Assembly: GCA_034430775.1 (NCBI GenBank)
Contig: DAOUDU010000248.1
Span: 16,120 to 80,119 of the forward strand
Reading direction: 5' to 3'
Source of the DNA: Anaerolineales bacterium
GTDB lineage: Bacteria; Chloroflexota; Anaerolineae; Anaerolineales; RBG-16-64-43
DNA length: 64,000 nucleotides
Part shown: positions 28,035-58,580 of the stretch, one piece after another
Numbering within the stretch: the stretch's first letter is position 1
Layout: each line of letters opens with the position of its first letter
Position numbers and translations under genes: made by a program
Notes under the pieces: model-generated
Database searches by the model: none
The model's input: the letters and a program-made list of their open reading frames with translations, nothing else
Told to the model about the DNA's origin: nothing

Positions 28035-28047
28035 GGTTGCGGCGCGC

Positions 28048-28724: not shown

Positions 28725-30053
28725 CTAGGATTCCGGGAGCGCCGGAGCCGCGCCTTTTCCGATTTCAACCACCCGCTGGACGATTAAGCGCGACATCACG
28801 TCGTTGGCGGCCAGTTGGCGCAGCGTTTCTTCCATCGATTGCTTGTTCTTGTTTTTCCCGGTGCTTTCGGCAAACACCGATTGATAGACTTCGACCTGTT
28901 TGTTAATGGCTTCCTCGGACGGTTCAAGCTTTTCCTTTTTCACCAGTTCCGTCAGGAGCAGGCGGCGGATGAGTTTCCGGCGGGCATCCGGTTCGAGCTG
29001 CGCCCGCAAGCCTTTCATTCCTTCCGGAACGGTCCGCAGATATACCTCCAGAGAGGTTTTCCGCTGTTCCAGCCGGCGCGCCAGGGTCTGAATCTCTTCG
29101 TCGATTTCCTCTTCGAGCATCGCCGGCGGAAAAGTGATGGACGACCCCTCGATCATTTTTTCGATCACGCTGTCCGCGTATTCTTCCTCTTTGGATTCCA
29201 CCGCCCGATTCTCGAGGCGTGAACGCACTTCACTGCGCAGCTCATCGACCGTGCTGAATTTACTAACCGCCTTTACCAAATCCTCGTTCCAATCCGGAAG
29301 CTTCCGGATCTTTACGCCCAGGCACTTGACGGTCAGCTGGGCTTGCAGGCCTTTCAGACGGGCGATCGGGAAGCTGTCCGGAAACTGGACCGCAACGGTC
29401 CGGGTTTCACCTTCGGAGATTCCCTCCAGCGCCGGTCCAGCGCCGGGGTAGCGCCCGCCGAGATTGTCATCGAGATCCAAATCCTGCGGGTTGGTCTCGC
29501 CCTCGAACGTCAGCGGCTGGAGTTTGCCGTCTGGGGACAGAATTCCGGCTTTTAAATCGACCGTCAGCACATCACCTTTTTGCGCAGGGCGCGTCACCGG
29601 CTCGAGCAGGGATTGCGACTCACGCAGTTGTTCCAACGCCCGCTCGACATCCTCATCGGGAATGGCCGGTGATTCAAACGGCACGCGTGCGGAACGGTAG
29701 TCGCTGATTTCCACGACCGGCTGCACCGGAACGAGGAATTCAAGCGTCAGCGGCCGGCGCGTGACAATCCGCTTCATGGTTCCCACGGCCGAAGGCTCGA
29801 GCTTTTCCTGCTCGAGCGCCTGGCGGTAGGCGTCGGGTCCAATCGTATCCAGCGCCTCGTCCAGAATGGCGTCCTCTCCCCAGGTCTGCAGTACAACGGA
29901 ATAGGGGGCTTTGCCTTTTCGAAATCCGGGAAAGTTCTGCTTCTCCGATATTCGCCGCGCCGCCTTTTGCATCGCGGATTCGACGGCGGCGGAATCCACC
30001 TCGACCGTGACCAATGCCTCACAGGATTCTTTCCGCTCGACCTGTATTTTCAT
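28725..30053 (-). CDS. tig: Trigger factor
   Basis: ORF 28725..30185 trimmed to [15 protein letters not shown] (ATG at complement 30051-30053; upstream codons would overlap the tRNA). [10 protein letters not shown] ribosome-binding motif. Confidence 0.9.
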
Positions 30054-30109
30054 GAAAAAGGGGTTCCTTCCTATGGAAAAATCACACATCCGGCTTTCCG
30101 GAATGGGTG

Positions 30110-30191
30110 TGGGGAAGGAGGGACTTGAACCCTCACGCCTTGCGGCACATGATCCTAAGTCATGCCTGTCTGCCAGTTCCAGCACTTCCCC
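30110..30191 (-). tRNA. tRNA-Leu, anticodon UAG
   Basis: Reverse complement is GGGGAAGTGCTGGAACTGGCAGACAGGCATGACTTAGGATCATGTGCCGCAAGGCGTGAGGGTTCAAGTCCCTCCTTCCCCA. 7-bp acceptor GGGGAAG/CTTCCCC, anticodon loop CTTAGGA, long variable arm, GGTTCAAGTCC T-loop. CCA is not encoded. Confidence 0.9.
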
Positions 30192-30335: not shown

Positions 30336-32873
30336 GTGAAGACAATTCCTGGGACCGTTCGAAAAGTGGATATCGACCAAGAAGTTCAGCAATCCTATCT
30401 GGATTATGCAATGAGTGTGATTGTGGCGCGGGCGCTGCCGGATGCGCGCGATGGATTGAAGCCCGTCCAACGGCGTATCCTCTTTGCGATGAACGATATG
30501 AGCCTCTCGGCATCGAATGCCTATAAGAAATCCGCCCGCATCGTCGGGGAAGTGCTGGGAAAGTACCACCCGCACGGCGATATGGCGGTTTACGAAACGA
30601 TGGCCCGCATGGCGCAGGATTTTTCGATGCGCTACCTGCTGGTCGACGGCCAGGGAAATTTCGGTTCGGTGGACGGCGACCCGCCCGCGGCGATGCGGTA
30701 CACCGAAGCGCGCCTGTCCCCGCTTTCAATGGAAATCCTGACGGATCTGGAGAAGGATACCGTCGCCTATTCGCAGAATTTCGACGGGTCGCTCCGCGAG
30801 CCCGACGTCCTCCCGGCGGCTGTACCGAATTTACTGGTCAACGGAGCTACGGGCATCGCCGTCGGTATGGCAACCTCTATCCCGCCCCATAATCTGGGCG
30901 AAGTGTGCGATGCCCTGGTGTTCATGCTGCGCTCATGGACCCGGTTGGAGGAGATCTCGGTCAAGGAACTCACCCGCCACATTTCCGGTCCGGATTTCCC
31001 TACCGGCGGTCTGATCTTGGATCCGGCCGGAAGCGAGGAGGGCCTGCTTGCGGCGTACGGTTCCGGACGCGGAAAAATCACCGTCCGGGCACGAACTCAT
31101 GTGGAGGAAACCACCCGCGGACGGTCGCGGATTCTTGTCACCGAGCTGCCCTACCAGGTAAACAAGGCTGCGCTGCTCGAACGGATCGCCGATCTTGTAC
31201 GCAGCGGCACCGTCGCGGGAATCGCCGACCTGCGGGACGAATCCGACCGGCGCGGGATGCGGGTGGTGATCGACCTGTTGCGCACTTCGGACGCCCGGCA
31301 AGTCCTGCGCGACCTCTATAAGCGAACCCCGATGGAAACGACTTTCAGCATCAACCTGCTGGCGCTGGTGAACAACGAACCGCGGATGCTGACGTTGAAG
31401 CAGGCGTTGCGGGTGTTCCTGGAGCATCGGCTGGATGTCATCCGCAAACGCAGCGCGTACGACCTGGCGCGCGCCAAAGAACGCGCCCACATCCTCGAGG
31501 GGTTGCGCATCGCGCTGAAGAACCTTGACGAAGTAATCCGGCTTATCCGAGGGGCGAAGGATACTGACGATGCCCGCGCCAAACTGCGGAAGCGGTTCAA
31601 GCTGAGCGAAATCCAGGCCAACGCCATCCTGGATATGCCGCTGAAGCGGCTGGCGGCACTCGAACGCGAGAAGATTGAACTCGAATACAAGGAAAAAACC
31701 GCGTTGATCAAGCGGCTGGAAAAAGTCCTCGCCTCGCCCAAGCTCCTGCGCCAGGTGCTGGTTGACGATCTTCTTCGCGTAAAAAAACAATATGTCGATC
31801 CGCGGCGCAGCATCATCGTCCACGGCTGGGAAGCCGAGCCGAAGGCGCCGGTCACGGCCGAAACCGCCGAGCCGGTGACGGAATCCTGGATTGTCCTCCT
31901 GCGCGGCGGGGAACTCTCGCGCCTTGCCGCAACCAAACCTCCAGCGGTATATGCGAAGAACCCACCCCGGTTTATCGTAAAAGCCTCCTCGCGGGATATC
32001 CTTTACCTTTTCACCGAGAAAGGCCGCGCAGCTTCGATCCCGGTTCATACCATCCCCGCGCGTGAGGACCCCAAGGACGGCGTCCCGTTCTCCACGCTTT
32101 GCGCGCTGGAAGCCCGCAGCCGGGTGAGAGCCGGATTGGCTGTCTCACCCGCCGAGGCGGGATCGGGCGAGGACACCCGCTCGATATTATTGTCCACCCA
32201 CAAAGGATTGGTGAAGAAAACACTGGTTCAAGATCTGCCGGGGTCGTCGTCGCAGGTGCTTCAGGCGATGAAAGTTGCGCCGGAAGACTCCGTTGGCTGG
32301 GCTCTTCTGCTTACCGGGAAGTCTGAAATTTTACTGGCGACCAGCACCGGGATGAGCATCCGCTTCCGCGAGAACGAGATCCGTCCGACCGGATGGGGTA
32401 CATCCGGGGTAATGGGGATCCGCCTTACGCGTCCCGACGAGCAAATCGTCATGACCGCCGCACCCGCGGCCCGCGAGGATATCCTGCTTGTCTCGGATAC
32501 CGGACAGGCCAAACGGACGCCCGCCGCGCAATATCCGGTCCAGGGACGTTACGGTGTGGGAATCGCCACCTGGAAGACCGGTGTAAAAACGCGGCTGCTC
32601 GGTGGATTTTCCGGGACGCAGCAGGATAAGCTGGCGCTGGTTTGGAAGGACGGACAATCCAGGGTGCTCTCCCTGGACGAAGTTCCGAAGCGCGGACGCC
32701 CGGGAGTCGGGAAATCGATCATTCCGAAGAAAATGGCAGGCATTCTGGATGCAGTCGTCCCGATCCTTATTAAGAGCAAACCGGCTTCAAAAAGGAAGAA
32801 GAAGCCGTCCAAGCCTGTCCGTAAGCCGGTGCGGAAATCCGTGAAGAAAATAAAGCGCCGGAAGAAGAAATGA
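30336..32873 (+). CDS. gyrA: DNA gyrase subunit A with Lys/Arg-rich C-terminal tail
   Basis: 845 aa, GTG start with [45 protein letters not shown]. Tail is [33 protein letters not shown]. Confidence 0.95.
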
Positions 32874-42018: not shown

Positions 42019-43077
42019 ATGGTAGTAAAGAATCCGGACCTCATCTGGTATAATTTTTTCATGGAGAAAATTACAATCGACGGGCCGAAAGCACCCATCG
42101 GATTTTTATCCTCGGTCTGGAAAGGGATCGAATACATCAATGCACACCCGGGAGTTCTCGTGATCCCGGTCATTTTGGATGCATTTTTATGGTTTGGACC
42201 ACATCTTTCGGTCTACGCGCTGGTGGATCCGGTAATCGATTCCATGACCTTTGCCGCGCTTTCCAATCCGGCGAACACAACCATGATCGACGCCCTGAAA
42301 CTGGCGGCGGAGAAATTCAACCTTTTCTCGCTTCTGGCCCTCATCCCCCTGGTTCCGCCGAGTTTGATGTCCGGCATTTCGCCGGATCGGACCCCGTTTG
42401 GAAACCCGCTCATCCTGCCGGTCGAAAATTGGCTGGTGGTCATCCTTCTGGCAGCGGGATTGATCGTACTCTCGCTGCTTATCGGCTCGGTGTACTGGGT
42501 CTGGGCGGGCAGCGCAACCCAGACGGCATCCTGGAAGTTGAAAGATTTGCTGGGCCGTTGGATACGGACGGTCCTGATGATGTTTTTACTCTGTATGGCT
42601 TTTTTACTCGTTATCCTGGTTTTTATGATCCCGGTTTTGTTCCTCATTTCGCTGGTTGCTCTGGCGTCGCCGGGGATCGGGGCTGTCCTCTCCCAATTGT
42701 TCTTTTTCCTGGGAGGCGGATTTTTATTTTGGGTCATACTGTTTTTCATGTTTTCCATGCACGGGACGGCTCTTTACCGCGATGGTATGATGGCGGCCGT
42801 CTGGAACAGTATCAACACGTCACGCTGGATGTACCCGATGTCGATCTGGATCCCGTTGCTACTGGTCCTCCTGAATTTCCTGACCTCATCGATCTGGTCG
42901 CTGGCGCCGGATAACAGCTGGGCCGGGGCGGTGGGTGTCCTGGGGAATGCTTACACCAGTACGGTGGTGGTCTTGGCCAGCATGGCCTATTACATCGACA
43001 AGCGCCGCTGGATCGAAGAAGTGCGAACCTACCTGCAAACCCGCATGGCGGACAAGATCCCGCCCGGTGCGGTCTGA
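42019..43077 (+). CDS. Hypothetical polytopic membrane protein
   Basis: 352-aa ORF with ~7 hydrophobic segments. Alternative start ATG 42061. No family recognised. Confidence 0.5.
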
Positions 43078-43084
43078 GGAGATC

Positions 43085-45022
<1,938 letters not shown>

Positions 45023-46603: not shown

Positions 46604-47896
46604 TTAACGGGAAAACAACGGGAACCAAAATACATACAGGATCGAGATCACGGCGCACGTCCCGAGCATCACTGGCAGGCCGCGTTTATTCCACAGTTTG
46701 GAGGTGATCGGCGAGCGGGTGCGTTCCGAGAGAGTCACCACGATGATGTTGGCGGTCGAGCCGATGATCGTGCCGTTGCCGCCCAGGCCGGCGCCGAAGG
46801 CCAGCGCCCACCACAGCGGCGCAATGTTGACGCCGTTTTGACCCAACTGATGAATGACGGGAATGAGCGCGATAGTGATGGGGATGTTATCCACCAGGGC
46901 CGACAGGATGGCGATAACCCAAATGATCACCAACCCAAATACCACAGGCGGAACTCCCACCTGGATTTGAATGACCAGATCTGCAAGCCAGCGAAGCACG
47001 CCGGCCGATTCCAGCCCGCCGACCATGACAAACAATGCCGCGAAAAACAACAGAACATTCCATTCGATCAGCTCCAGCATCTTTTTCATGGGCGGCTGGA
47101 TCCAGATCATGGCGACGGAGGCCGCGCTCAGGGCGATGAAGGCCGGGCTGACATTTAATGGTTCCTGAATGAAAAATAAAAGGATGGCCGTTCCCAACAC
47201 GATTAGTACTCGCTGAGCCTTCTTGGGCTCTTCCAATGCTTCGACCGGGTTTAGTTTCGACACGGCATCGGTGTTTGTTGGACGGACCGCCAACTCCTTC
47301 CGGAATAAAAGGCGCAGAATTAACAGTGCCACCAGCCAAACAACCACAATCAGGGGAAGTGAGTTGACGAGAAAGTCGTTGAAGGAAAGTCCGGCGGCGG
47401 AGGCGATCAGGATATTGGGGGGATCACCCACCAGGGTGGCCACGCCGCCCGTATTGGCCAACAACGCTTCCGCCATAAGGAACGGCACAGGGTGTATGCC
47501 CAGGATTTCGCTGATGAGGATGGTAACGGGCGCAATCAGGACGACGGTTGTGACGTTGTCCAGGAACATCGAAAGGATAGTGGTCACCAATCCCAACAGG
47601 ACAAGCAGCCGCACAGGGCTTCCTTTGGAAATGCGTCCCGCCCAGACGGCGAGAAATTGGAAGAACCCCGTCGGCTCCAGAATGGCCACGAGAATCATCA
47701 TCCCCAGCAGCAATCCGAGCGTGTTGAAATCCACTGCTGCGATGGCCGTCGCTTCCGAGTAGAACCCGAGTATCTTTCCCGCCGCAACCATGAGAATGGC
47801 CCCGGCGATGGCAGTCGATGTGCGGTGGATTTTTTCTGTGAAGATGATCGCCAGGCAGGCGAGGAAAATTACGGCCGCAATAATTTCACTGATCAT
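46604..47896 (-). CDS. ArsB/NhaD-superfamily (citrate-transporter-like) permease
   Basis: 430 aa, ~11 TM segments. SMFLDNVTTVVL and GDPPNILI motifs typical of the ArsB/NhaD/YbiR group. Confidence 0.8.
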   Translation of the reverse strand: MISEIIAAVIFLACLAIIFTEKIHRTSTAIAGAILMVAAGKILGFYSEATAIAAVDFNTLGLLLGMMILVAILEPTGFFQFLAVWAGRISKGSPVRLLVLLGLVTTILSMFLDNVTTVVLIAPVTILISEILGIHPVPFLMAEALLANTGGVATLVGDPPNILIASAAGLSFNDFLVNSLPLIVVVWLVALLILRLLFRKELAVRPTNTDAVSKLNPVEALEEPKKAQRVLIVLGTAILLFFIQEPLNVSPAFIALSAASVAMIWIQPPMKKMLELIEWNVLLFFAALFVMVGGLESAGVLRWLADLVIQIQVGVPPVVFGLVIIWVIAILSALVDNIPITIALIPVIHQLGQNGVNIAPLWWALAFGAGLGGNGTIIGSTANIIVVTLSERTRSPITSKLWNKRGLPVMLGTCAVISILYVFWFPLFSR

Positions 47897-48366
47897 GTTG
47901 CCTTCCCCTCGGGTTCCTGCCAGGTGGAAAGTACCGCGGTCGCCACATCAGCCCGGGAAGCAATTCCGACAAGGATGCCGTTAGAATCCGTTACCGGGAT
48001 GTCGTGCAAATCATCCTTCAGCATCAGGGAATACGCGCGCAGCAGCCCGCAGCCTTCCCCGACGGTCGTGATGGATTGCATGAGCGTGGTCACCGGCCGG
48101 GCCAGAACGTCGGGTGCAGGACGGGTGTTTTCCACCGCGCCGAAATCGTGGACAAAATCCACATCCCCCACCAAGCTTACAAAATCCGGCAATTCCAGTG
48201 CAAGCAGATCGCTCAAGCGGAGAATCCCGACCGGTTTGCCCTCTGTGTTTACTACCGGCAGCACGCCGATATGGTATTTTACAAAAACCGAAGCCGCCTC
48301 GGCGGTTGTCGCCGTTTCGGGTATAGATACCACATTCCGTTTCATGCAATCCTTGATGTGTGTCAT
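47893..48366 (-). CDS. CBS-pair domain protein
   Basis: 157 aa. Two CBS motifs (HIGVLPVVNTEGKPVGILRLSDL; LHDIPVTDSNGILVGIASRADV). 4-nt overlap with the permease start. Confidence 0.8.
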   Translation of the reverse strand: MTHIKDCMKRNVVSIPETATTAEAASVFVKYHIGVLPVVNTEGKPVGILRLSDLLALELPDFVSLVGDVDFVHDFGAVENTRPAPDVLARPVTTLMQSITTVGEGCGLLRAYSLMLKDDLHDIPVTDSNGILVGIASRADVATAVLSTWQEPEGKAT

Positions 48367-48443
48367 GCGCCGTTCCTCTCATTCGCCAGAATGGCCGGCC
48401 GCGCGGGACATCCCCGCCGGGTAAACCGCGTATCCGCACCGCA

Positions 48444-50249
48444 TCATTTCTTTTGAGACTGTGCGTCCTGATATTCGGGGATGTCAATCATTGGCGGCCG
48501 TTCGGCTTCGATGATCTCTTCGATGTCCAGGGAATAGACACCCGCGGTCTGCCGGATCAGCTTCATGGATTTGTTGACATCCTCCACCAACCGAAGCCCA
48601 TACCGTTTTTCCAGCTTGCGCAGGAAGGCCTGCAGGATAATGAACGACATCTTGCTGAGCGCTTCGAGCGGCTGGTTATGATGCACGCGTTCCAACAAAT
48701 CCACCTGGGCGATGGCGGATAAGCCGTGTCGCTCGAAGGCGTCAATCAGCAGGCCGGTTTCCACGCCGTAACTGGAAAAGAAAGGAACCTGTTCGAGAAA
48801 GCCGCGCCGGGCGCCGTATTCCCCCGATAGGGGTTGGATGATTCCCGACAACTCCGGATAGAACAGGTTGATCAGCGGCCGTGCGGTGAGCTCGGTGACC
48901 CGTCCTCCTCCTCCGGCTTGGGTCTTGCTTCCCACTCGCAGCGGCCGGCGATAGAACGCCTTGACGAATTGAATGCGCGGATTTTGCAGCAACGGTCCCA
49001 GGACCCCATAAACAAACCGCGGATGAATGTTGACAATGTCGGTGTCGATCCATAGAACAATATCCCCTTTGGTCACCAACAGGCTCTTCCAAAGTGCCTC
49101 GCCTTTTCCGTCGCGGGGTGTCAACCCCGGCAGAAGTTCCTGGTGTATGAAAACGGGGATTCCCTGCTGGCGGGCGATTTCCCTTGTCCGGTCGGAGGAA
49201 TTTGAATCGATGAGGATGATTTCATCCAAGAGGGGCGTCTCCGTCAATAATTCCTTCTTGATGATCCGGACCACCCGGCCGACCGTTTCCTCCTCGTTCA
49301 GCGCGGGCAGGGCCAGGCTGACGGTTACCCCCTGACTTTTCTTCAACGCCATCAACTTGTCGAGATCGGAAAACTCATCCGCATGGTACGTATTTTCAGC
49401 AAACCATTTGTCGACCAGGATGGAAATCGCCTGGGCGCCGGCGGCTTCATCCAGGATCCCCACCGGAGCCGGACGCCGGCTCTTTACCGCCAGCACGGCT
49501 GCGGTGGATTCCTGAAGGATTTTATCCGCTACGGGGCCCAGCGAGACCGAACTCCTTAAGGGCTGGGATGTCGTTCCAATAATAATCAGGTTGCATCCGC
49601 CGTATTCCTGCAATATCGACTGCGCCGGATCGTGCGTTACAAGGAACCGTTTCTCCACTTCAGGCAATTGGGAAAGAACCCGATTCAATCCGCGGAAGGG
49701 CGCATCCGATTGCGAACCGGTTTTTTCCTCCGTTTGCAAATGCAGTGTGGTGATCTGCCGGTCCGTCATACTGAGTCCGGTCCGCAGCGCCAACTCGGCG
49801 TGCGGGCCGCCGCGGAGCGGGATCAGGATGCGCAGCGCCCCATCCGGAAATGGACCGCGAATTACGCCGACATTGCACGGTGGCCGCGCAAGCGCATCCT
49901 CGGGCGGAATTCCCAATGCATCAAAATGTCCGCCCCATTCCAGAAGCAGCAGATCCGGTTCGTTTTCCTCAATCAACCGGCGGAGGTCGAGCCAGGGATT
50001 GTGTGAAACGTGCACCAAAGACCTGGACCGGACCTTTTTTCCGTCGACCAGTATGCGCATCCGGTGACGCACTTTGCGGGCCATCGACGCGCCGATGCTC
50101 AGGGATTTCCCGTGTGGAACAGGCACCAATCCGACCAGGATGACGTTCGCATCCAGAGCAAGCGCAGCTTTTAATGCCGATTTACCGCGGCATCCGTAAA
50201 CCACCGGGACGAGAACAGTCCGAAAGGAGGAAAACTTCTGGGGCTTCAT
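48444..50249 (-). CDS. Fusion protein: tandem universal-stress-protein-like domains plus glucosyl-3-phosphoglycerate synthase-like GT81 domain
   Basis: 601 aa. N-terminal ~280 aa has two USP-like halves (TVLVPVVYG...; ILIPLRGGPHAE...GPVADKILQESTAAVLAVK). C-terminal half has LPALNEEETVG, IDTDIV, GGGRVTELTARPL, QPLSGEY, GVETGLLID, VHHNQPL. Confidence 0.8.
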   Translation of the reverse strand: MKPQKFSSFRTVLVPVVYGCRGKSALKAALALDANVILVGLVPVPHGKSLSIGASMARKVRHRMRILVDGKKVRSRSLVHVSHNPWLDLRRLIEENEPDLLLLEWGGHFDALGIPPEDALARPPCNVGVIRGPFPDGALRILIPLRGGPHAELALRTGLSMTDRQITTLHLQTEEKTGSQSDAPFRGLNRVLSQLPEVEKRFLVTHDPAQSILQEYGGCNLIIIGTTSQPLRSSVSLGPVADKILQESTAAVLAVKSRRPAPVGILDEAAGAQAISILVDKWFAENTYHADEFSDLDKLMALKKSQGVTVSLALPALNEEETVGRVVRIIKKELLTETPLLDEIILIDSNSSDRTREIARQQGIPVFIHQELLPGLTPRDGKGEALWKSLLVTKGDIVLWIDTDIVNIHPRFVYGVLGPLLQNPRIQFVKAFYRRPLRVGSKTQAGGGGRVTELTARPLINLFYPELSGIIQPLSGEYGARRGFLEQVPFFSSYGVETGLLIDAFERHGLSAIAQVDLLERVHHNQPLEALSKMSFIILQAFLRKLEKRYGLRLVEDVNKSMKLIRQTAGVYSLDIEEIIEAERPPMIDIPEYQDAQSQKK

Positions 50250-51508
50250 ATTCCGTCTCCCAGGTTCGCGGTTCCGTTCCGGACCTCAGCCAGCAGGGGG
50301 CCGATGCGGTCCCTGTATATCCGGTCCCAATTAAACTCCCGACGGACCTTCTCCGCCAGTTGGAAAACCGGATCGTCCCGCAGTCGCCCGGCGATGAGTG
50401 ATGCCACATGCCCGGGTTCATCTTCCGAAGAAAAATACGTTACGTTTTCTTCGCCTAATTCGCGCAGGGCCGGCAGGTCAGCGCAGAATACAGGGCTGTG
50501 GGTCAATCCCGCCTCCAAAACGGGAATGCCGAATCCTTCTTCGCGGCTTGGTAGGAACAGCGCATCAGCCAGGCGATAAAAATCGGCAATGACGGAATCC
50601 GGTAAAAAGGAATCACTTAACTCCGCCAAAAAAAAGGCGGATGCATCCAAACCAAGCCTGCCGCGCAGCGCCAGCAACTCGCGGAAATAGACTATGTTTT
50701 CAGGGTTGTGAGCGCCGACCGGGCCGGTGACGATCATGACGGCGTTTGGGAAAACATCCCGAAGCCGGGCAAGCGTGGTTAACGCCAACTCCAGGTTTTT
50801 CCGCCGCGTGATCCTTACCGGAACCAGAAGGATGGGGGCGGCCTGCCACAGGTCCAGTTCAGCAATAAAGCCGATGGTCGTTTTTTCAAGTTTGAGAAAA
50901 TCCTCAGCCAGAATGCCGTTGGGAATGACACGGATATTTTCCAGGGGGATTTCCGCCAGATCGGAAAGCTCTTGTTGCCGTGAGGCGGATATCGTCACTT
51001 GGACGGCGCCCGGCCAGTCGATGCGTAAAAGATCCCAGGGATGACCGCTGTGTAATTCCGGGAGGTAGCGCGGTGCTTTCCACGCCAAATCATGATGCCA
51101 GAGAATGAGACGGGGGAAACCCGGTTCGCGATAAAGTTGATGCAGGGCTTCGGTTAATACAAGGTTCTTGTTCAGAGAACAGACATTATGCGCAATCAAG
51201 ATATCGGCAGATTTCAGGGCGGGACGCAATTGATCCATCAGCCGGTTGACAAGGAGCGCAAAGGCGGGTGGAACACGGCCGGCATCCAATTCTTTTTTCA
51301 CCGCGAGAATTTCCGGGTCCAGCGAGTCGACCAGCGGCAGGCGGAGAAAACCGATCTTTTCATTTTGCGGCTCGCCGCGGGCAGCCAGGATCTGCACGGC
51401 ATGACCCGCGCCAGAGATCAGCCTGGCCTGATGCGCCAGGACGCTTTCCACCCCTCCGACGATCGGCGGGGCGGAATAATGCATCAGGATGATTTTCATC
51501 CGCGTCAT
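50246..51508 (-). CDS. GT4-family glycosyltransferase
   Basis: 420 aa. GGVESV N-terminal motif, EX7E motif PSREEGFGIPVLEA. Confidence 0.8.
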   Translation of the reverse strand: MTRMKIILMHYSAPPIVGGVESVLAHQARLISGAGHAVQILAARGEPQNEKIGFLRLPLVDSLDPEILAVKKELDAGRVPPAFALLVNRLMDQLRPALKSADILIAHNVCSLNKNLVLTEALHQLYREPGFPRLILWHHDLAWKAPRYLPELHSGHPWDLLRIDWPGAVQVTISASRQQELSDLAEIPLENIRVIPNGILAEDFLKLEKTTIGFIAELDLWQAAPILLVPVRITRRKNLELALTTLARLRDVFPNAVMIVTGPVGAHNPENIVYFRELLALRGRLGLDASAFFLAELSDSFLPDSVIADFYRLADALFLPSREEGFGIPVLEAGLTHSPVFCADLPALRELGEENVTYFSSEDEPGHVASLIAGRLRDDPVFQLAEKVRREFNWDRIYRDRIGPLLAEVRNGTANLGDGI

Positions 51509-51510
51509 AC

Positions 51511-52866
51511 CTATACCGCCTCGCCCAGACAGTCCGAAAGGAGATGGCGCAGCCGCCTTCGCAGGACGGAGAAGGAATAATACCGCCTCGCCAAGAGGTA
51601 ATTTTTATCGGCCCAGTTTTCGGTTTCCTCCGGATGGAGCAGGCAGTGGCGCACATTTTCCAAAGTGGCTTCATCAATGAAGCCGTTGAACTCGATCACG
51701 GAAAAACCTTTCGGTTTGATATCCACTTCGTAGATGGAATAGTTATTTACCACGATCGGCCGCCGGTAATAGACAGCCTCCAGGAAGGCATTTCCGAATC
51801 CTTCACTGCTGGAAGGATACGTCACCAGATCAGCCTGGGGATAAATATCCGCCAACGTGAAGATATTCCGGCCGTCGGGAGACAGGCCGCGATTTTCCTG
51901 TATGATATTCGCTTCAAAACCCACCTGGATATCGAGCAATTTGGCGAATTCCCGGACCCGGCGTTCATAATCCGTGCCTTCATCGCCCGCCGCGTGCGAG
52001 ATGACCAGCTTGGCGGGAATTCCCACCCGGCGGGTCAGTTCAATAGCGTGCTCGATACCTTTGCGCTGAATGATGCGGGTCGGCTGGAGAAACAACTTCT
52101 CTCCGTCGGCGACGCCAAGATTGGCGCGGATATTCATGGCGTAGGCATCCGGAGGTTTGGGGGGCTGTTCGAAATCCATGACATTCGGTATCACAACCGC
52201 CGAAATACCGGTCCGCGACGCCAGCTGGTGGGCCGCAACCGAGCTGATCACTACATGCCGGATGGAAGGCAGATGGGGCGGGAACGCGGCGGCAATGTAA
52301 TCTTTGACGCAGTTGACCTTAAAGCGACGGCGTTCCCAATGGAAGTCGTGATGGTGGGCAATCGTTGGGAATCCGGTTTCCGCGATGAATTCGGTAATCG
52401 CCAAACCCAAAGGCAGGTTCAGCGGAATAGTCAGTGCGTTCTCGACAATGAGAATATTCAGCGAGAAATCCTTGGCGAAGGCATACAGGCGCTCCTTAAA
52501 CATATCCTTCAACCCTTGGATCTGAAGCGACATTTGCGGGGGTCGGATATATATGGAGAAGTAATCCTTGTACAGGGGTGAGATCTCCGGATGCGCTGCG
52601 CGGGCCTGCGCGGTGGCGGACCAATCCCCCGCATAGGCAGTCCGGTTCATCGCGTTGATGACGGGGTGGCGGTAGAACGCTTCCGGTATCACACAGCTGC
52701 GATCTGCAGGTCGATCGGAAAGCCCTGAAAAGTAGAAGCAGGTATGACCCAATTGTTCGAGTACCTGCGCCCATTTGGATGTTTCCAGCGAGACACCATC
52801 GGTCCCTGCGAACCGGGTGGAGATGAAACCGATATGTGAGGGTTGGGAGAAGGGACTCGTGCTCAT
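51511..52866 (-). CDS. GT4-like glycosyltransferase (second, divergent)
   Basis: 451 aa. ISTRFAGTDGVSLE N-terminus, PSSSEGFGNAFLEA EX7E-type motif. Confidence 0.7.
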   Translation of the reverse strand: MSTSPFSQPSHIGFISTRFAGTDGVSLETSKWAQVLEQLGHTCFYFSGLSDRPADRSCVIPEAFYRHPVINAMNRTAYAGDWSATAQARAAHPEISPLYKDYFSIYIRPPQMSLQIQGLKDMFKERLYAFAKDFSLNILIVENALTIPLNLPLGLAITEFIAETGFPTIAHHHDFHWERRRFKVNCVKDYIAAAFPPHLPSIRHVVISSVAAHQLASRTGISAVVIPNVMDFEQPPKPPDAYAMNIRANLGVADGEKLFLQPTRIIQRKGIEHAIELTRRVGIPAKLVISHAAGDEGTDYERRVREFAKLLDIQVGFEANIIQENRGLSPDGRNIFTLADIYPQADLVTYPSSSEGFGNAFLEAVYYRRPIVVNNYSIYEVDIKPKGFSVIEFNGFIDEATLENVRHCLLHPEETENWADKNYLLARRYYSFSVLRRRLRHLLSDCLGEAV

Positions 52867-54722
52867 GCGGAATTATCCTTTTCCATTTTCGGCAGCGGTG
52901 ATTCTTCGGAGAGCGTAAGCCAGCAGGCCTGGTATGGCTCCAGACGGAACGGATCCGCCGCGGCAAGGGAAAATCGCCTGCCGCTGACCAGATCGACCAG
53001 CGCCCGATCCGGCGTAATCGGGCCGAAAATCGATTTTACATCCAGTTCAAGCGTTTGCTTCATACCAGAAACCTCGTGCAGGCAAAGTACGCGACGTCCG
53101 GTTTTCGAATGGGTTCGCAACAGGGCGAATACGGCGCTGCCACACGATACCATCTGCTGGGGGCTGAATGGGTCGAAGGCGGGCGTACTTGCCCTGGCGC
53201 GTATCAGACCGGTTAGTCCAGAAAAAACACGGCTGCGGATGCCGGTTTCCTCTGCAAGTTCGCGTTCCAGTTCCGCGCGTTCATTTTTTTGACGGTTGAT
53301 AACCCGGTTTCGTCCGCTTTGCCGGACTCCATCCCGCCAACCCCTGGATCCGAACAGACTATGAAAGTATAGCGCGGGAACTCCTGCCAGGCTGAGCAGG
53401 ATGGCATGCGCGCCGAGGAACCGCGCGATCGACCGGTCGCGCGGTTCCTCCCCGAAGGGATTGGAGAGCGCATCGAAATAATTAATATTCAATTCATAGG
53501 GTTCCGCTGTGCCGTCCGGCATCCGCCTGCATGAGACGTATCCACCGTGATCCTGTGTTGTCTGGATCAATCTTTGCAGTTCCGCTTCCGTCAGGATTTC
53601 TCTGGCCGCATTAAGACCGATACCGTCATGCGAAGCGAGGAAATTCAGGAAAGCCGTCTTCCGGCCGGGATTGGAGCGCCCACCCGCCCACTGCGAAAGG
53701 GTTTGCGCGTCTCCGGTCAGGAAGGTGTGCCATACCAGCGGGGGAAGTGCGAAGTTGTAGATTAACTGCGCTTCGTTTTCGCCGTTCCCGGCATAAGAAA
53801 TATTTTCCGCGTGCGAAACGTTCGTTTCGGTGGCAAGCAGGACGCCCGGCGCAGCTTCCTCCACAACAGCGCGCAGCAACTGGACGATTCGATGAGTCCG
53901 GGGAAGATTAATGCAGGGCGTCCCGGCTTCCTTCCAGAGATAGGCGGCGGCATCCAGCCGGATGATTGACGCGCCCCGCTCCGCATAGAAGAGCAGGAGG
54001 TCCGCCATCTGTAACAGGACGCGGGGATTTCTATAATTTAAATCCGCCTGGTCTTCACTGAATGTCGTCCAGACCGTCTTTTCCAGCGGGGGTGTGCCCA
54101 CCCGGTGAAAAAGCGGCGAGGTTCGCGGACGGACCACGTTCTCAAGTCGCGACAGATCCTTGCGTTCGATGAAGAAATCGCGGTACGGTTCCTCACCCCG
54201 GAGAAATGCCTGGAACCAAGCGCTTCGCACAGAGGCGTGATTGAGGACCGCATCGATCATCAGGCCGAATTTTTCGGACAGACGGGAGATATCATCCCAT
54301 GTTCCAAACGCCGGATCCACCTGGCGATAATCCGTGACAGAAAAACCATCGTCGGAGGTGGAGGGATAAAAAGGCAGAATATGCAAGTACCGGATGAGTC
54401 CCTGAAGTTCTCTTTGGCAGAAATCCTCAAGGACTGTAAGGGGAGGAAGACCTTCCGCGCGCAACTGATCCGGATAGGTGATCAGAATAACGTCCCGGCC
54501 GCTAAGAGGCGCCTTCCGGCTGCCGTGGAAGGTTCCTTTTTCGCGATGGCGAATCACCAGTGCGGAAAACTCATCCGCGATCCGGCCGCTGTCCGGTGCG
54601 CCATAAAGGTCTTGTAGGATTTTTTTCAATCGTGCAGTGATCGGGTTAATCGTCAAAAGTTCTCGCTCCCGGTTTTTCAGGATCGCCGGCCGGAAGTACG
54701 GCCAAAAAAAGGCGGCCTCCAA
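52863..54722 (-). CDS. GH13 sucrose-phosphorylase-like sugar phosphorylase (GH13_18-like)
   Basis: 619-aa ORF with TTG start. A more likely start is TTG at complement 54654-54656 (LTINPITARL, GGGAGCGAG upstream). ILPFYPSTSDDGFSVTDY, DAVLNHAS, IIRLDAAAYLWKE, FLASHDGIGL. Confidence 0.8.
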   Translation of the reverse strand: MEAAFFWPYFRPAILKNRERELLTINPITARLKKILQDLYGAPDSGRIADEFSALVIRHREKGTFHGSRKAPLSGRDVILITYPDQLRAEGLPPLTVLEDFCQRELQGLIRYLHILPFYPSTSDDGFSVTDYRQVDPAFGTWDDISRLSEKFGLMIDAVLNHASVRSAWFQAFLRGEEPYRDFFIERKDLSRLENVVRPRTSPLFHRVGTPPLEKTVWTTFSEDQADLNYRNPRVLLQMADLLLFYAERGASIIRLDAAAYLWKEAGTPCINLPRTHRIVQLLRAVVEEAAPGVLLATETNVSHAENISYAGNGENEAQLIYNFALPPLVWHTFLTGDAQTLSQWAGGRSNPGRKTAFLNFLASHDGIGLNAAREILTEAELQRLIQTTQDHGGYVSCRRMPDGTAEPYELNINYFDALSNPFGEEPRDRSIARFLGAHAILLSLAGVPALYFHSLFGSRGWRDGVRQSGRNRVINRQKNERAELERELAEETGIRSRVFSGLTGLIRARASTPAFDPFSPQQMVSCGSAVFALLRTHSKTGRRVLCLHEVSGMKQTLELDVKSIFGPITPDRALVDLVSGRRFSLAAADPFRLEPYQACWLTLSEESPLPKMEKDNSA

Positions 54723-54740
54723 TGAGCGACCGCCTCCACC

Positions 54741-55175
54741 GTGTTATTAAAAAAATCGATTCGCCGAATATTTCAAGTCGACTATATCAAAAACTCCTTT
54801 AAAAGGCCAGTGCCATCACGATGCTTCGAATGCATGGCGATTGGATTCTGCAGCCCGACGGATATACGCTGTCGCGGTTTGTCGGTTCCTCCGGAAGAAA
54901 ATTACATATTCTATTCCAAAGGAGTCGCCAGGGGCTCGATCGTCTGGGAAGGAAGTTCACCCGTGATTATTGACCGTACCCCGAATTATTCCTATAGTAT
55001 CGGGGTTTTCGATCTGTTCGGCGTGATGGCGTGCCTGGCCATCCTGTGCGCCCTGTCGATTCACATTCCATCTGACCGCTATTCTGCATCGTACCATCGG
55101 CCTTTTGGATACAACCGGCCGGGACGAAAATATTCCCGTGGAGTATGCATTGGATTGGGGTTGTATGCGTCCTGA
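54741..55175 (+). CDS. Low-confidence ORF in low-GC spacer (Cys-rich N-part, one hydrophobic segment)
   Basis: 144-aa ORF with GTG start. No SD and no recognisable family. Overlaps the next ORF in another frame. Confidence 0.25.
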   Translation: MLLKKSIRRIFQVDYIKNSFKRPVPSRCFECMAIGFCSPTDIRCRGLSVPPEENYIFYSKGVARGSIVWEGSSPVIIDRTPNYSYSIGVFDLFGVMACLAILCALSIHIPSDRYSASYHRPFGYNRPGRKYSRGVCIGLGLYAS

Positions 55176-55374
55176 TGTATTTAGGGATCCAAACGTTTAC
55201 TCCCCGGTCATCGTCGGATATTGCATCAACCCATTTCCTCCGCTTGGATTCATTGAAAAATCGTCAAAGGATTCTTATCATGCCTATACGGTATGGGTTG
55301 TTGTTTTCCCAAATACCTCATGGTACCTTAGTACTGTCTTGGTTCTGCTTTATAAATTACAACCTTATTACTGA
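55105..55374 (+). CDS. Low-confidence ORF in low-GC spacer (aromatic-rich)
   Basis: 89-aa ORF (TTG start; internal ATG at 55165). Ends ~50 nt before a plus-strand terminator. Confidence 0.25.
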   Translation: MDTTGRDENIPVEYALDWGCMRPDVFRDPNVYSPVIVGYCINPFPPLGFIEKSSKDSYHAYTVWVVVFPNTSWYLSTVLVLLYKLQPYY

Positions 55375-55490: not shown

Positions 55491-56351
55491 CTACGAGATG
55501 GTAGTCTCGGAAGGTGTGAAGTCCGGTGCCAAAAAAGGGGTTGCCGTTGGCGGGGGAACCGGGGTTTCGGTAGGGGTGAGGGTTTGAGTCCACTGCGGGG
55601 GAAGGGGGAGGTCGACCGTGCTGACGGGAGCACGCGTCGGTGTGGGTGTGGCGAGTAATGTATTAAGCGCTGGTCCCAGGACACCGTAATATAAAATCAC
55701 TGCGGCGATGATCAGGACAAGCGCAACGAGAGCGATCGTTAAAATCCTGAACCACTTTCCGGCAAAAAGGGGTTTTTTCCCGGGTGGCGGCATGTGGTCA
55801 GCAGATATGACCGGAACAACCTGAGTTGGGCTGATCGGTTCCGGCTGAGCTGGGCTGATCGGTTCCGGACGAGAGGCGGGTTTTCGCTCGAAAACCGATT
55901 TTTGCACAGGCCGAAGCGGTTCGGTCGGCTGTACATCGGCGGGTTTGGGCGATGAGATGGGTGAGGGTTTAAGCTCGGGTTTAGGTTTTAGATCGAGTTC
56001 GGGTTTGGGCGCGGGTTCGGGTTCCAACGCGGGCTCGGGTTTGGGAGCAGGGGTTTGTGGCGGCCTTACGCTTTTTTTAAAAAGCTCCTCCGTCCTCCGG
56101 CCTAGAAGATGCGCCAGCTTTGATTGTGCAACCGTGTTATTGGGATTGATCTTCAGCACCCGCTCCAGACAGTCTTTCTGCTTGGCGGGGTCGGAGAGGA
56201 CATAGCTCATCAACAGCCAGGCCTGCTCCGAGGAGGGGTTCTTCATAAGGTACTGCATGAGCGTTTCCCGCGCCTGTTCCAGACGGCCGTTTTTCACCAT
56301 TTGCGTGGCGGTGTTCAGGGCGTCGGCGGGAGGCGGATTGGAATCGCTCAT
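55491..56351 (-). CDS. TPR-like / Pro-rich single-pass membrane protein
   Basis: 286 aa. N-terminal TPR-like helices (AWLLMSYVLSDPAKQKDCLERVLKINPNN), PEP/PKP-rich linker, one TM helix (ILTIALVALVLIIAAVILYY), Thr/Pro-rich exterior. Confidence 0.6.
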   Translation of the reverse strand: MSDSNPPPADALNTATQMVKNGRLEQARETLMQYLMKNPSSEQAWLLMSYVLSDPAKQKDCLERVLKINPNNTVAQSKLAHLLGRRTEELFKKSVRPPQTPAPKPEPALEPEPAPKPELDLKPKPELKPSPISSPKPADVQPTEPLRPVQKSVFERKPASRPEPISPAQPEPISPTQVVPVISADHMPPPGKKPLFAGKWFRILTIALVALVLIIAAVILYYGVLGPALNTLLATPTPTRAPVSTVDLPLPPQWTQTLTPTETPVPPPTATPFLAPDFTPSETTIS

Positions 56352-56537: not shown

Positions 56538-58580
56538 ATGACGCTGGAAAAAGGTTATTTGCTTTACGGAAGGTATCGGATCGAATCGATCCTCGGACGC
56601 GGCGGGATGGGATCGGTTTATAAATCACTTGACGAGAACCTCGGCATCCCGGTAGCCGTTAAGGAAAACCTCTTTACCACGGAAGAGTACGCCCGCCAGT
56701 TTCGGCGTGAAGCCACTATTCTGGCCGGTCTACGCCACTCCAACCTTCCCCGCGTCACCGACCACTTCGTCATCGCCGGTCAGGGCCAATACCTGGTAAT
56801 GGATTACATCGACGGCGACGATCTACACACACGAATTGAAAAGGGGAATCTCCCCAGCGAGCGTCTGGCTGTAGACTGGGCGCGGCAAATCTGCGACGCG
56901 CTAAACTATCTCCATACCAGACAACCGCCTGTCGTCCACCGGGATATCAAGCCCGGCAATATCCGGATTACATCCGAGGGGCGTGCCGTTCTGGTCGATT
57001 TCGGCTTGGCGCGCCTAATGGAGGGGCCGACGACAACCACCGGCGCGAAAGCCATGACCCCGGGATATTCTCCGCCCGAACAATACGGCGCCAGCCGAAC
57101 CGATTCACGCACAGATATTTATGCGCTTGCCGCCACGATGTACACGCTGTTGACCGGCGCGATGCCGGAAGACGGCTTGGAACGCGCGCTCGGACAACGC
57201 ACCCTGACGCGTCTCCGAGCCCGGAATCCCAAAATTTCCGCAGGAGTCGCGGCCGCGATCGAAAAAGCTCTGGAAGTCCTGCCCGAGAACAGGTTCCAAC
57301 TGATCGGAGATTTTCAAAAGGCACTGGCATTATCCGTTCCGCCGACTCCGCAAGCATCAACCGTATCCTCACCAGTAAAAGTGCGGCCGCCTGCCGCTGC
57401 GGCACCGCCGCCGAAGGCACCACCTCCCAAACCCAGGAAGCCGGCAGCTTCGGCATCCTCTCAGCCGCAAAGAGGTTTCCCCTGGGGTTGCGCATTGAGC
57501 GGATTATTCGTACTGATTCTATTCATCGCCGGAGGATTACTTTTCGGAAACGATATTCGCGCGATGATCCAATCGATTGCTCAGGGAACCCGGCCGGATA
57601 TCGCCATATCCCAAACCCAGACGGCGCTGATTCCCGTGTATACCGTAACGGCAACCGAGGCGGAGAATCCCACCTCGGCCGTGGGCACCGACTCGCCCGA
57701 ACCAACGGCTACCGCCACCTCGATCATCACCCCCGACGGGCGCGCCCGTTCGATTGCATTCGCCTCCGATCGTACGGGGATCCCTCAAATATATATCATG
57801 GACGTCGACGGCCAAAACCTGCTGCAGCTTACCAACGAAGCGGAAGGAGCCTGCCAGCCGGACTGGTCACCGGATGGGGAAAGATTGGTCTTTACCTCGC
57901 CCTGCAAGTCGCTCGAAGACGCATTCCTTAAAACCTCCATCTTTCGGATCAATGCCGATGGTTCCGGACGGACCTCCCTGACCAAGGTTCCCGGCGGAGA
58001 TTACGATCCCGCCTGGTCGCCGGATGGAAAACGGATCCTCGTGACATCGCTGCAAGATGGACGGAAGCACATCTACGTAATGGATATTAACGGGGATAAT
58101 CGGGTCCTCATCTCGAGCACAGCCGGCGCGGTGGATTATCAGGCGCGTTGGGCGCCCGACGGCGAACGGATTATCTTCGTTACATTGGCCGGCAGTCATC
58201 CGATTATTTTTACCGGCGCGATTAATCCCCTGAATGCAAAGCGTCAAGAGTTCTCCACCGTTACCTATGCCACAATGAGCCCGGATTGGTCGATTGACAA
58301 TTACATTATCTACATTCTGGGCCCGCGCGGGCAGGTTGTCATTTGCCCATTGGATTTGCGGTTCACCTGTCCGAAAAACGAATTAACCCCCGAGTACCAG
58401 GGCACAACCGTCGCCCGATTCTCCCCGGACGGGCAATGGGTTTTGTTCGATATGAATATCAAGAACAACCGCGACATTTACCTCCTGCCCATCGTCGGCG
58501 CCCGGGAGCCACGTCGGATCACCTCCGACCTCTCAGCAGAGACAGATCCCGCGTGGAGGCCGATTGCCTCGGTATCTTAA
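56538..58580 (+). CDS. Ser/Thr protein kinase with TM helix and TolB-like beta-propeller sensor domain
   Basis: 680 aa. GRGGMGSVY, VAVK, HRDIKPGNI, DFGLA, TPGYSPPE. Then Pro-rich linker, TM helix and five WSPDG-type (PD40) repeats. Confidence 0.9.
   Translation: MTLEKGYLLYGRYRIESILGRGGMGSVYKSLDENLGIPVAVKENLFTTEEYARQFRREATILAGLRHSNLPRVTDHFVIAGQGQYLVMDYIDGDDLHTRIEKGNLPSERLAVDWARQICDALNYLHTRQPPVVHRDIKPGNIRITSEGRAVLVDFGLARLMEGPTTTTGAKAMTPGYSPPEQYGASRTDSRTDIYALAATMYTLLTGAMPEDGLERALGQRTLTRLRARNPKISAGVAAAIEKALEVLPENRFQLIGDFQKALALSVPPTPQASTVSSPVKVRPPAAAAPPPKAPPPKPRKPAASASSQPQRGFPWGCALSGLFVLILFIAGGLLFGNDIRAMIQSIAQGTRPDIAISQTQTALIPVYTVTATEAENPTSAVGTDSPEPTATATSIITPDGRARSIAFASDRTGIPQIYIMDVDGQNLLQLTNEAEGACQPDWSPDGERLVFTSPCKSLEDAFLKTSIFRINADGSGRTSLTKVPGGDYDPAWSPDGKRILVTSLQDGRKHIYVMDINGDNRVLISSTAGAVDYQARWAPDGERIIFVTLAGSHPIIFTGAINPLNAKRQEFSTVTYATMSPDWSIDNYIIYILGPRGQVVICPLDLRFTCPKNELTPEYQGTTVARFSPDGQWVLFDMNIKNNRDIYLLPIVGAREPRRITSDLSAETDPAWRPIASVS

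Follow-up and report, generated by a model that had tools for sequence, protein, structure and literature searches.

In a 64,000-nucleotide stretch of an Anaerolineales contig (the window), six genes lie head to tail on the minus strand, and we analysed them as a candidate operon for a compatible solute based on glucosylglycerate (GG). In the order of their proposed transcription, the genes encode a GH13_18 phosphorylase (probably 52863-54656, 597 aa); GT4a, a retaining GT-B transferase resembling the mannosylglucosylglycerate (MGG) synthase MggS (51511-52866, 451 aa, PF00534); GT4b, a second GT4 and distant paralogue of GT4a (50246-51508, 420 aa, PF00534 and PF13439); a 601-aa fusion protein (48444-50249) that joins an N-terminal tandem universal stress protein (USP) domain (49425-50249, about 275 aa, PF00582) to a GT81 domain of GpgS, a glucosyl-3-phosphoglycerate synthase (48444-49424, NF010496); a stand-alone CBS-pair protein (47893-48366, 157 aa, two stretches matching PF00571); and a permease of the ion-transporter superfamily that is CitMHS/ArsB/DASS-like (46604-47896, 430 aa, PF03600).

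A previous sequence-only reading had described six minus-strand genes in one transcription unit, and our scan for open reading frames (ORFs) returned exactly six between 46604 and 54722. The 4-nt overlaps at 52863-52866, 50246-50249 and 47893-47896, the 2-nt gap at 51509-51510 and the largest gap of 77 nt (48367-48443) all agree with the ORF coordinates, and the four motifs quoted in that reading (RLDAAAYLWKE, FLASHDGIGL, SSEGFGNAFLEA and REEGFGIPVLEA) are present in the translations. The genes share a strand, overlap or nearly abut and keep their order in relatives, the GC content of the cluster (0.56-0.57) matches that of the rest of the window, and promoter- or terminator-like sites within the cluster do not exceed their frequency in shuffled sequence. 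The gene set, its order and its overlapping junctions are repeated in related Anaerolineales contigs at protein identities of 59-97%. Because order and overlapping junctions recur in this way, we do not attribute the layout to chance, and the six genes are probably transcribed as a single unit.

The product of the first gene matched PF00128 with 96 bits and aligned end to end with Escherichia coli YcjM (40% identity, 419 bits). YcjM is listed among the characterised glucosylglycerate phosphorylases (GGaPs) in a review of GH13_18 (PMC7178133), its RefSeq name is glucosylglycerate phosphorylase, and homologues of the window protein are annotated either as 'sugar phosphorylase' or as 'glucosylglycerate phosphorylase'. 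The three catalytic residues, the Asp of RLDA, the Glu of TETN and the Asp of SHDG, were invariant in an alignment of 11 sequences from several phyla that included YcjM. According to the same review, GGaPs differ from sucrose phosphorylases in a (T/S)ETN signature at β-strand 5 and in a Glu that replaces Gln in loop A (PMC7178133). Both signatures occur here and, like the catalytic residues, are invariant in that alignment: the window protein reads LLATETNV, with TETN also found in YcjM and all aligned homologues, and its loop A (PYELNINY) parallels that of YcjM (PYEINVTY) as opposed to the ...IYQIN... of sucrose phosphorylase. We thus filed the protein in the GGaP clade of GH13_18 as a putative glucosylglycerate phosphorylase (EC 2.4.1.352), which upholds and sharpens the earlier call of a sucrose-phosphorylase-like GH13_18 enzyme. 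A plain sucrose phosphorylase or amylosucrase, the outcome that the same reading had set against its own proposal, was rejected. Scores against solved structures were similar for sucrose phosphorylase (7qqj, 181 bits) and amylosucrase (172 bits), followed by glucosylglycerol phosphorylase (GGoP, 153 bits) and the sucrose-6F-phosphate enzyme SPP (125 bits), but all lie far below the 419 bits for YcjM, and the match to the sucrose phosphorylase model TIGR03852 (181 bits) stayed under its cut-off of 334.

The mechanical ORF of this gene begins at a TTG at 54722 and spans 619 aa. Because homologues are 596-597 aa long and start level with a second TTG at 54656, because that codon is preceded, at a distance of 9 nt, by the Shine-Dalgarno sequence GGGAG, and because the TTG at 54722 sits in the loop of a conserved non-coding hairpin, we place the true start probably at 54656. 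Of the coordinates first given for this gene, the end at 52863 therefore stands and the start probably does not.

The GT81 domain of the fusion protein (residues 279-590) scored 373.6 bits with the GpgS equivalog model NF010496, well above the cut-off of 262, so that its earlier designation as GpgS-like was borne out; the fused tandem USP domain had gone unmentioned. Among solved structures, the domain matched the Rubrobacter MpgS/GpgS 3f1y with 256 bits and Mycobacterium tuberculosis GpgS with 228 bits. Aligned with the mycobacterial enzyme, it shows DTD for DSD, an identical GGGRVTEL and RVHHNQPL for RAHRNRPL, which we take to be the DxD metal/donor motif and, with the H-x-N of the last, conserved GpgS segments.

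PF00582 matched the second half of the USP region with 39-44 bits, and 19 of 20 homologues matched as well. A profile of the region also found the tandem USPs Rv2623 (2jax/3cis) and 3loq as well as TeaD, and judging from its length and pattern, the first half is presumably a second USP copy. The canonical ATP-binding motif of USPs is G-x2-G-x9-G-S/T. With G-TT-S-x9-G-P in the window protein and a family consensus of G-AT-A-x9-G-P, the motif is degenerate here, and nucleotide binding by the domain is uncertain. Of 1.84 billion cluster representatives, which were searched exhaustively, only 480 proved to be relatives of the USP module (E<=1e-3). Most of those with full length were USP-GpgS proteins of 600-650 aa, and a few permease-USP fusions also occurred. 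Four proteins (P0462, P0474, P0494 and P0457) carry the module outside the standard USP-GpgS architecture. One protein of 1061 aa places an unknown 450-aa GT-A-like N-terminal domain before USP and GpgS (NF010496, 416 bits), and the module also occurs C-terminal to APC-type permeases in proteins of 750-1059 aa. Our literature search returned no paper that names both glucosyl-3-phosphoglycerate synthase and universal stress protein.

Both central genes encode GT4-type transferases with an EX7E motif (EGFGNAFLE and EGFGIPVLE), as had been proposed and as the PF00534 matches confirmed. The two proteins are 27% identical (E 2e-13), share the motif HHD(F/L)xW and appear from sequence to belong to the MggS/MggA lineage. 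The best NCBIfam match of GT4a was the MggS equivalog NF041101, and members of both families bear the KO-based JGI name 'mannosylglucosylglycerate synthase'. Because both scored far below the NF041101 cut-off of 640 bits (GT4a 204, GT4b 47), we file them as MggS/MggA-like GT4s and not as MggS or MggA; the likeness of GT4b to MggA is solely one of position next to gpgS (32 loci). A sequence search of the PDB with GT4a gave no match. An AF2 model of GT4a built from 24 homologues (pLDDT 77, pTM 0.80) and compared by Foldseek gave a GT-B fold whose nearest structures were BshA, the M. hassiacum mannosyltransferase ManT, sucrose-phosphate synthase (SPS), MshA and TreT, with E-values of 1e-11 to 1e-15 for BshA, MshA, SPS and TreT; most fold neighbours of the model are GT4s with small soluble acceptors, such as L-malate for BshA.

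The calls made earlier for the last two genes also held: PF00571 confirmed the CBS pair, and PF03600 (288 bits) confirmed the ion-transporter superfamily of the permease, which matched ArsB (63 bits) and VcINDY (57 bits) in the PDB. The two genes were always found together, namely in the window and in eight loci of relatives (numbered with L), where the pair is linked to the cluster (L001, L014, L018, L020, L022, L052, L089 and L090). A cluster that lacks both genes (L002) at first suggested unrelated neighbours. We rejected that view, given that L089 and L090 hold the same six genes as the window with overlapping junctions and that the pair recurs in L014, L018, L020, L022 and L052. The CBS-permease pair is an optional, recurrent accessory of a four-CAZyme core.

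Upstream of the first gene, a TTGATATAGT box resembling an extended -10 element (TGnTATAAT-like; 54781-54790, minus strand) is nearly identical in the window and in L088, L001, L089 and L090, within intergenic DNA that has otherwise diverged, and probably serves as the operon's promoter. It is followed after about 45 nt by a terminator-like hairpin (54704-54737, minus strand), about 48 nt upstream of the corrected GH13 start, with a 10-bp stem (GGAGGCGGTC / GGCCGCCUUU) followed by U7, which the sequence-only description of the operon had not mentioned. Across five related loci, including the same four, its stem is invariant and its loop variable. The hairpin resembles an intrinsic terminator placed in a leader and may act as a transcription attenuator. 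It occurs once in the window, so that we discarded a dispersed repeat. A permissive Rfam scan of the leader gave only a meaningless sRNA match of 17.6 bits, there was no covariation, and with an unremarkable z-score (-1.14) the fold is not unusually stable. The stretch between box and hairpin is not conserved across relatives and contains no conserved aptamer-like region, hence we see no evidence of a riboswitch aptamer.

To place the cluster in a comparative frame, we scanned one genome per species (GTDB) with an alignment of GT4a, which found a relative in at least 552 species, and mapped the cluster proteins by tblastn onto the best 80 species-representative loci, to which the following counts refer. 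All four core genes (GH13, GT4a, GT4b and USP-GpgS) are present at 25 loci. The GH13 gene adjoins GT4a at 29 loci, GT4a and GT4b are neighbours on one strand at 28, and GT4b adjoins USP-GpgS at 32, with both GT4b and the GpgS domain recognised at 30. GT4b is always immediately upstream of USP-GpgS, and the USP domain is present in 31 of the 35 loci that carry GpgS. The GH13 gene keeps to GT4a, and GT4b to USP-GpgS, even at loci with a permuted order (L005, L027, L030, L032 and L046). Because the permuted loci keep both pairs, the cluster is built of two sub-modules, GH13-GT4a, to which a GH63 gene may be added, and GT4b-USP/GpgS, to which a histidine phosphatase gene may be added. The functional tie among the genes that had been proposed is thus borne out by synteny, and the six-gene operon is better described as a widely conserved core of four CAZyme genes with the CBS-permease pair as an optional add-on.

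The additions to the core vary among relatives. A His_Phos_1 gene directly follows GpgS at 13 of the 80 loci, and also in L006. A GH63 hydrolase gene of the MGH1 type (PF22422, 281 bits) stands directly beside GT4a at nine of the 80 loci and in ten of the loci that were fetched; in L036, L039, L041, L042 and L072 the gene adjoining GT4a is about 590 aa long. CBS and permease genes follow the cluster at five of the 80. L089 and L090 (GH13 identity 69-71%) contain exactly the six genes of the window in identical order and then HtrA; in L090 all junctions are 4-nt overlaps, including those between GpgS and CBS and between CBS and permease, except for a 4-nt gap between GT4a and GT4b. L018 and L020 contain seven genes in the order GH13-GT4a-GT4b-USP/GpgS-HisPhos-CBS-permease, and L018 additionally holds an inserted baeRF_family3 protein. 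In L001, a P-II-like gene and a Na/Ca exchanger precede CBS (L052 also has Na_Ca_ex), and L024 and L025 carry a ClC-TrkA_C chloride channel in the cluster. With insertions that differ from relative to relative, the cluster resembles a modular stress island in its behaviour. GH63, GarK, ClC and Na/Ca exchanger genes were all absent from the 64-kb window.

The conservation of GT4a extends further. It is 63-97% identical in most Chloroflexota loci and 51-55% identical in Desulfobacterales, Spirochaetes, Verrucomicrobia and Bacteroidota. Found in at least 552 species, it is far more conserved than the neighbouring GH13 or GT4b proteins. Outside Chloroflexota, the homologues with 51-55% identity mostly stand alone or are paired with GH13. 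The idea that the Desulfobacterales homologue is an MggA of the Rhodopirellula baltica type next to a HAD-type MggB was dropped when the 321-aa gene downstream proved to encode a 'Gate' membrane protein.

The route through GpgS needs a phosphatase, and the statement that the operon encodes none of the GpgP or MggB type held for the whole 64-kb window, where tblastn queries with the histidine phosphatase of L006 and E. coli YedP (MPGP family) gave no match. A phosphatase in the cluster is also absent from L001, L002 and L088-L090. The histidine phosphatase of the other relatives has an RHG motif and matches PF00300 with 198 bits, and the mycobacterial GpgP Rv2419c belongs to the same superfamily (PMC3240985). 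The comparison thus provides the pathway in Chloroflexota with a likely phosphatase (His_Phos_1) and a likely hydrolase (GH63). Of the self-contained module for synthesis and recycling that had been proposed, the synthases and the phosphorylase are present in the window, but the phosphatase and the GH63 hydrolase occur only in the clusters of relatives. The window shows a single gene of phosphatase type, a HAD-IIA-like one (27204-28136, minus strand; Hydrolase_6/Hydrolase_like) between secDF and the trigger factor gene; located 18 kb away and with no link to the pathway, it was not assigned to it. Its only homologue in the fetched loci is 36% identical and lies about 7 kb upstream of the L041 cluster.

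Taken together, we think it reasonably probable that the operon serves a GG-based compatible solute, most likely MGG or a close analogue. The GT81 domain, whose family membership is established, would use NDP-glucose and 3-phosphoglycerate to form glucosyl-3-phosphoglycerate (GPG), and the fused tandem USP domain would gate this first committed step upon stress. GT4b, the constant neighbour of GpgS, may add a hexose to GPG as MggA does. A phosphatase, in many relatives the histidine phosphatase whose gene follows GpgS and in this genome presumably encoded elsewhere, would then free the solute. GT4a, usually beside the GH13 gene, may add a hexose to free GG in the manner of MggS. The two additional hexosyltransferases of the earlier reading are thus retained as two GT4s of MggS/MggA lineage, but they may serve parallel routes, on GPG and on GG, in place of successive extensions. 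The GH13_18 enzyme, assigned to its clade above, would convert GG to glucose-1-phosphate and glycerate. In the cell, phosphate is far more abundant than glucose-1-phosphate, and free glycerate is scarce. Because of this excess of phosphate, we expect the GH13 enzyme to be degradative in vivo. As an optional osmostress accessory, the CBS protein and the permease might transport ions, glycerate or the solute; since both GG and MGG carry negative charge, a carrier of the anion type for solute or glycerate is plausible, if speculative. Along with the ClC and Na/Ca exchangers found in relatives, the pair would mark an osmostress island.

Several observations weigh against this interpretation. As seen in the window, the pathway is incomplete, the tblastn searches for a phosphatase gene having come back empty. 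Co-transcription of synthases and a degradative phosphorylase would produce a futile cycle if the enzymes were not controlled after translation; the USP domain, as the clearest candidate for such gating of the first step, would limit the cycle. Among solved structures, the one most similar to the GT81 domain, 3f1y, is deposited as MpgS, and the Rubrobacter xylanophilus MpgS/GpgS is reported to be dual-specific (PMC3240985). Because this closest solved relative uses both mannose and glucose, the donor sugar of the GT81 domain, glucose or mannose, is uncertain. Both GT4s fall short of the MggS equivalog cut-off, and the MggS homologue of R. baltica was inactive in vitro (PMC3736172). Finally, GG genes are absent within 10 kb of the Desulfobacterales GT4a homologues, and the acceptor of the GT4a family may be broader or different.

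Sequential elongation, in which GT4a and GT4b act on GG in succession to give a tri- or oligosaccharide-glycerate (for instance Man-Man-Glc-glycerate or a Glc-Glc-glycerate-type solute) or the primer of a larger intracellular glycan, is possible, although we consider it unlikely. It would suit the adjacency of the two genes on one strand at 28 loci, the GT4a-GT4b pairs without GH13 or GpgS nearby in L028, L029, L033 and L034, and the low identity of the two proteins (27%), which fits different acceptors. Larger GG-primed molecules exist, such as glucosylglucosylglycerate in Persephonella and methylglucose lipopolysaccharide (MGLP) in mycobacteria. Neither the cluster nor the window, however, holds a methyltransferase, acyltransferase or branching enzyme of the MGLP type, and the permuted loci, which keep GT4b with GpgS and GT4a with GH13, fit two entry points better. 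We see a smaller chance that the product is an undescribed glycerate-primed oligosaccharide solute with a USP-gated first step and a leader attenuator, for which GT4a would differ from MggS in its acceptor or in its regulation, perhaps by Ser/Thr phosphorylation.

It is doubtful that the GH13 enzyme works in the biosynthetic direction, combining glucose-1-phosphate and glycerate to GG that GT4a would trap as MGG, independently of a phosphatase. GGaP reactions are reversible (PMC7178133, PMC11009771), Cunha et al. put forward this route for R. baltica (PMC3736172), and GH13 and GT4a are translationally coupled by a 4-nt overlap and adjacent across phyla. The route would also account for the missing phosphatase in the window, L001, L002 and L088-L090. 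Against it, the ratio of phosphate to glucose-1-phosphate and the scarcity of glycerate predict net phosphorolysis; moreover, GpgS is kept in the operon, for which a phosphatase is still needed, and the GH63 hydrolase that accompanies GH13-GT4a in nine loci points to a degradative pairing.

Still less probable is a salvage locus, whose permease would import GG, MGG or glycerate for degradation by the phosphorylase while the transferases remodel the pool. The permease superfamily does comprise transporters of organic and inorganic anions, and both E. coli ycjM and the Spirochaetota homologue (L004) adjoin ABC sugar importers, but GpgS and two GT4s that depend on NDP-sugars are enzymes of biosynthesis, the permease occurs at only five of the 80 loci, and a glycerate kinase was found neither in the window nor in any locus. 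That the genes are coincidental neighbours, with GT4s that build an envelope glycan or glycolipid and have no tie to GpgS or GH13, is highly improbable: JGI's generic name 'glycosyltransferase involved in cell wall biosynthesis' and the Desulfobacterales homologues without GG genes would allow it, but stop/start overlaps are conserved over 59-97% protein identity, the four-gene block recurs at 25 loci, and the modelled fold of GT4a appears nearest to GT4s with soluble acceptors.

In Petrotoga and in Rhodopirellula, MGG pathways with GpgS, MggA, MggB and MggS have been described (PMC3736172). That GH13_18 genes of the GGaP type are linked with GG or MGG genes is also on record (PMC7178133, PMC3736172, PMC11009771), and it was through such linkage of 'sucrose phosphorylase-like' GH13_18 genes with GG genes that GGaP was discovered (PMC7178133, PMC11009771). 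A close precedent is mggS-mggB-spasE of R. baltica (Cunha et al. 2013, PMC3736172), where an MggS-like GT4 is likewise linked to a GH13_18 gene, a phosphatase is linked too (as in relatives of the window only), the solute is GG-derived, and GpgS and an MggA-type GT4 are encoded in the genome. There, however, gpgS and mggA are scattered, the phosphatase is of the HAD type and the GH13 enzyme is active on sucrose, whereas the cluster in the window couples the four CAZymes translationally, has GGaP signatures and a USP domain on GpgS, and its relatives use a phosphatase of the His_Phos_1 type. In gpgS-mggA of Petrotoga mobilis (Fernandes et al. 2010, as summarised in PMC3736172), a GT4 also adjoins gpgS and the route runs from GPG via mannosylglucosyl-3-phosphoglycerate to MGG. 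The likeness to that summarised arrangement is one of gene adjacency; in the window, GT4b precedes GpgS, GpgS is fused to USP, and a second GT4 and a phosphorylase are added. By analogy, the cluster would merge modules known apart, gpgS-mggA from Petrotoga and mggS-phosphatase-phosphorylase from Rhodopirellula.

The individual enzymes have counterparts as well. The GGaPs of Meiothermus silvanus, Spirochaeta thermophila and E. coli (YcjM) share the GH13_18 clade, TETN, the loop-A Glu and, as characterised enzymes, a genomic association with gpgS/gpgP (PMC7178133). The window enzyme is about 40 residues longer than YcjM (597 compared with 559 aa) and is co-operonic with two GT4s, whereas ycjM of E. 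coli belongs to a sugar-uptake/catabolic cluster. The actinobacterial type of GpgS, represented by M. tuberculosis Rv1208 and Rubrobacter 3F1Y (228-256 bits), is also that of the GT81 domain, and mycobacteria use an enzyme of the histidine-phosphatase superfamily for GPG (PMC3240985), as found beside GpgS in relatives of the window. In mycobacteria, however, GG primes MGLP, the genes are unlinked, and there is neither a USP fusion nor a GGaP. GH63 hydrolases of the MgH/GgH type are matched by the MGH1-like gene beside GT4a in relatives, which would give them hydrolytic recycling; in the window, which lacks GH63, the phosphorylase is the only degradative enzyme.

The concept is thus established, and the arrangement of known enzyme types is new but not the kind of system. 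What is new concerns architecture and regulation, namely the fusion of USP to GpgS, a cluster that extends across Chloroflexota and the conserved terminator-like leader hairpin; further differences are that both modules are placed in one translationally coupled unit, the optional CBS-permease pair, and the actinobacterial-type histidine phosphatase and GH63 in clusters of relatives. As the extension of an established pathway family, the cluster should surprise a specialist only modestly. Anaerolineales are abundant in sediments, digesters and the subsurface, almost none have been cultured, and our literature search found no paper pairing glucosylglycerate with Anaerolinea; as far as we found, stress solutes of Anaerolineales are undescribed. 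The cluster predicts a GG/MGG-type solute, which is a concrete and testable proposal, and the USP-GpgS fusion suggests that the committed step of solute synthesis may be switched by stress without transcription. The four enzymes are also of biocatalytic interest, with GGaP and GT4s wanted for glucosylglycerate-type cosmetics and stabilisers (PMC11009771).

The window is chromosomal, as shown by gyrA, gyrB, secDF, sufBD, argS, trigger factor and PPDK genes, and the nearest homologues of the cluster proteins stem from metagenome-assembled genomes of Anaerolineales/Chloroflexota; the host is an uncultured Anaerolineales bacterium of the Chloroflexota. L088, a contig from a JGI metagenome, shares about 88% nucleotide identity with the window and is collinear with it. 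Upstream of the cluster, a remnant of a DUF998 gene (55070-55350, plus strand) retains only about 80 recognisable C-terminal residues and a frame change, and relative to L088 the window is short of about 296 nt at about 55071. The gene is intact and divergently oriented in L001, L002, L089 and L090, and it appears to be decaying in the sub-lineage of the window.

Every close relative conserves two upstream neighbours of the cluster, a TPR protein gene (55491-56351, minus strand) and a gene for a Ser/Thr kinase fused to a TolB-like β-propeller (56538-58580, plus strand). The GT4a homologue of Desulfobacterales (L057, L066, L075 and L079) has genes for PP2C, FHA and a Ser/Thr kinase with CHASE2 next to it. 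These kinase neighbours may be coincidental or may hint at control of GT4a by Ser/Thr phosphorylation.

Downstream of the cluster, gyrB (42935-45022, plus strand; DNA_gyraseB, Toprim and HATPase_c) lies 10 kb away from gyrA (30336-32873), and a 622-aa ORF on the opposite strand (42812-44680, minus) that has no family match is a shadow of gyrB. The longest ORF of the trigger factor gene (28725-30185, minus strand) overlaps the window's single tRNA gene (30110-30191, minus strand); the Trigger_N match begins at residue 45, which places the real start of the trigger factor downstream of the tRNA.

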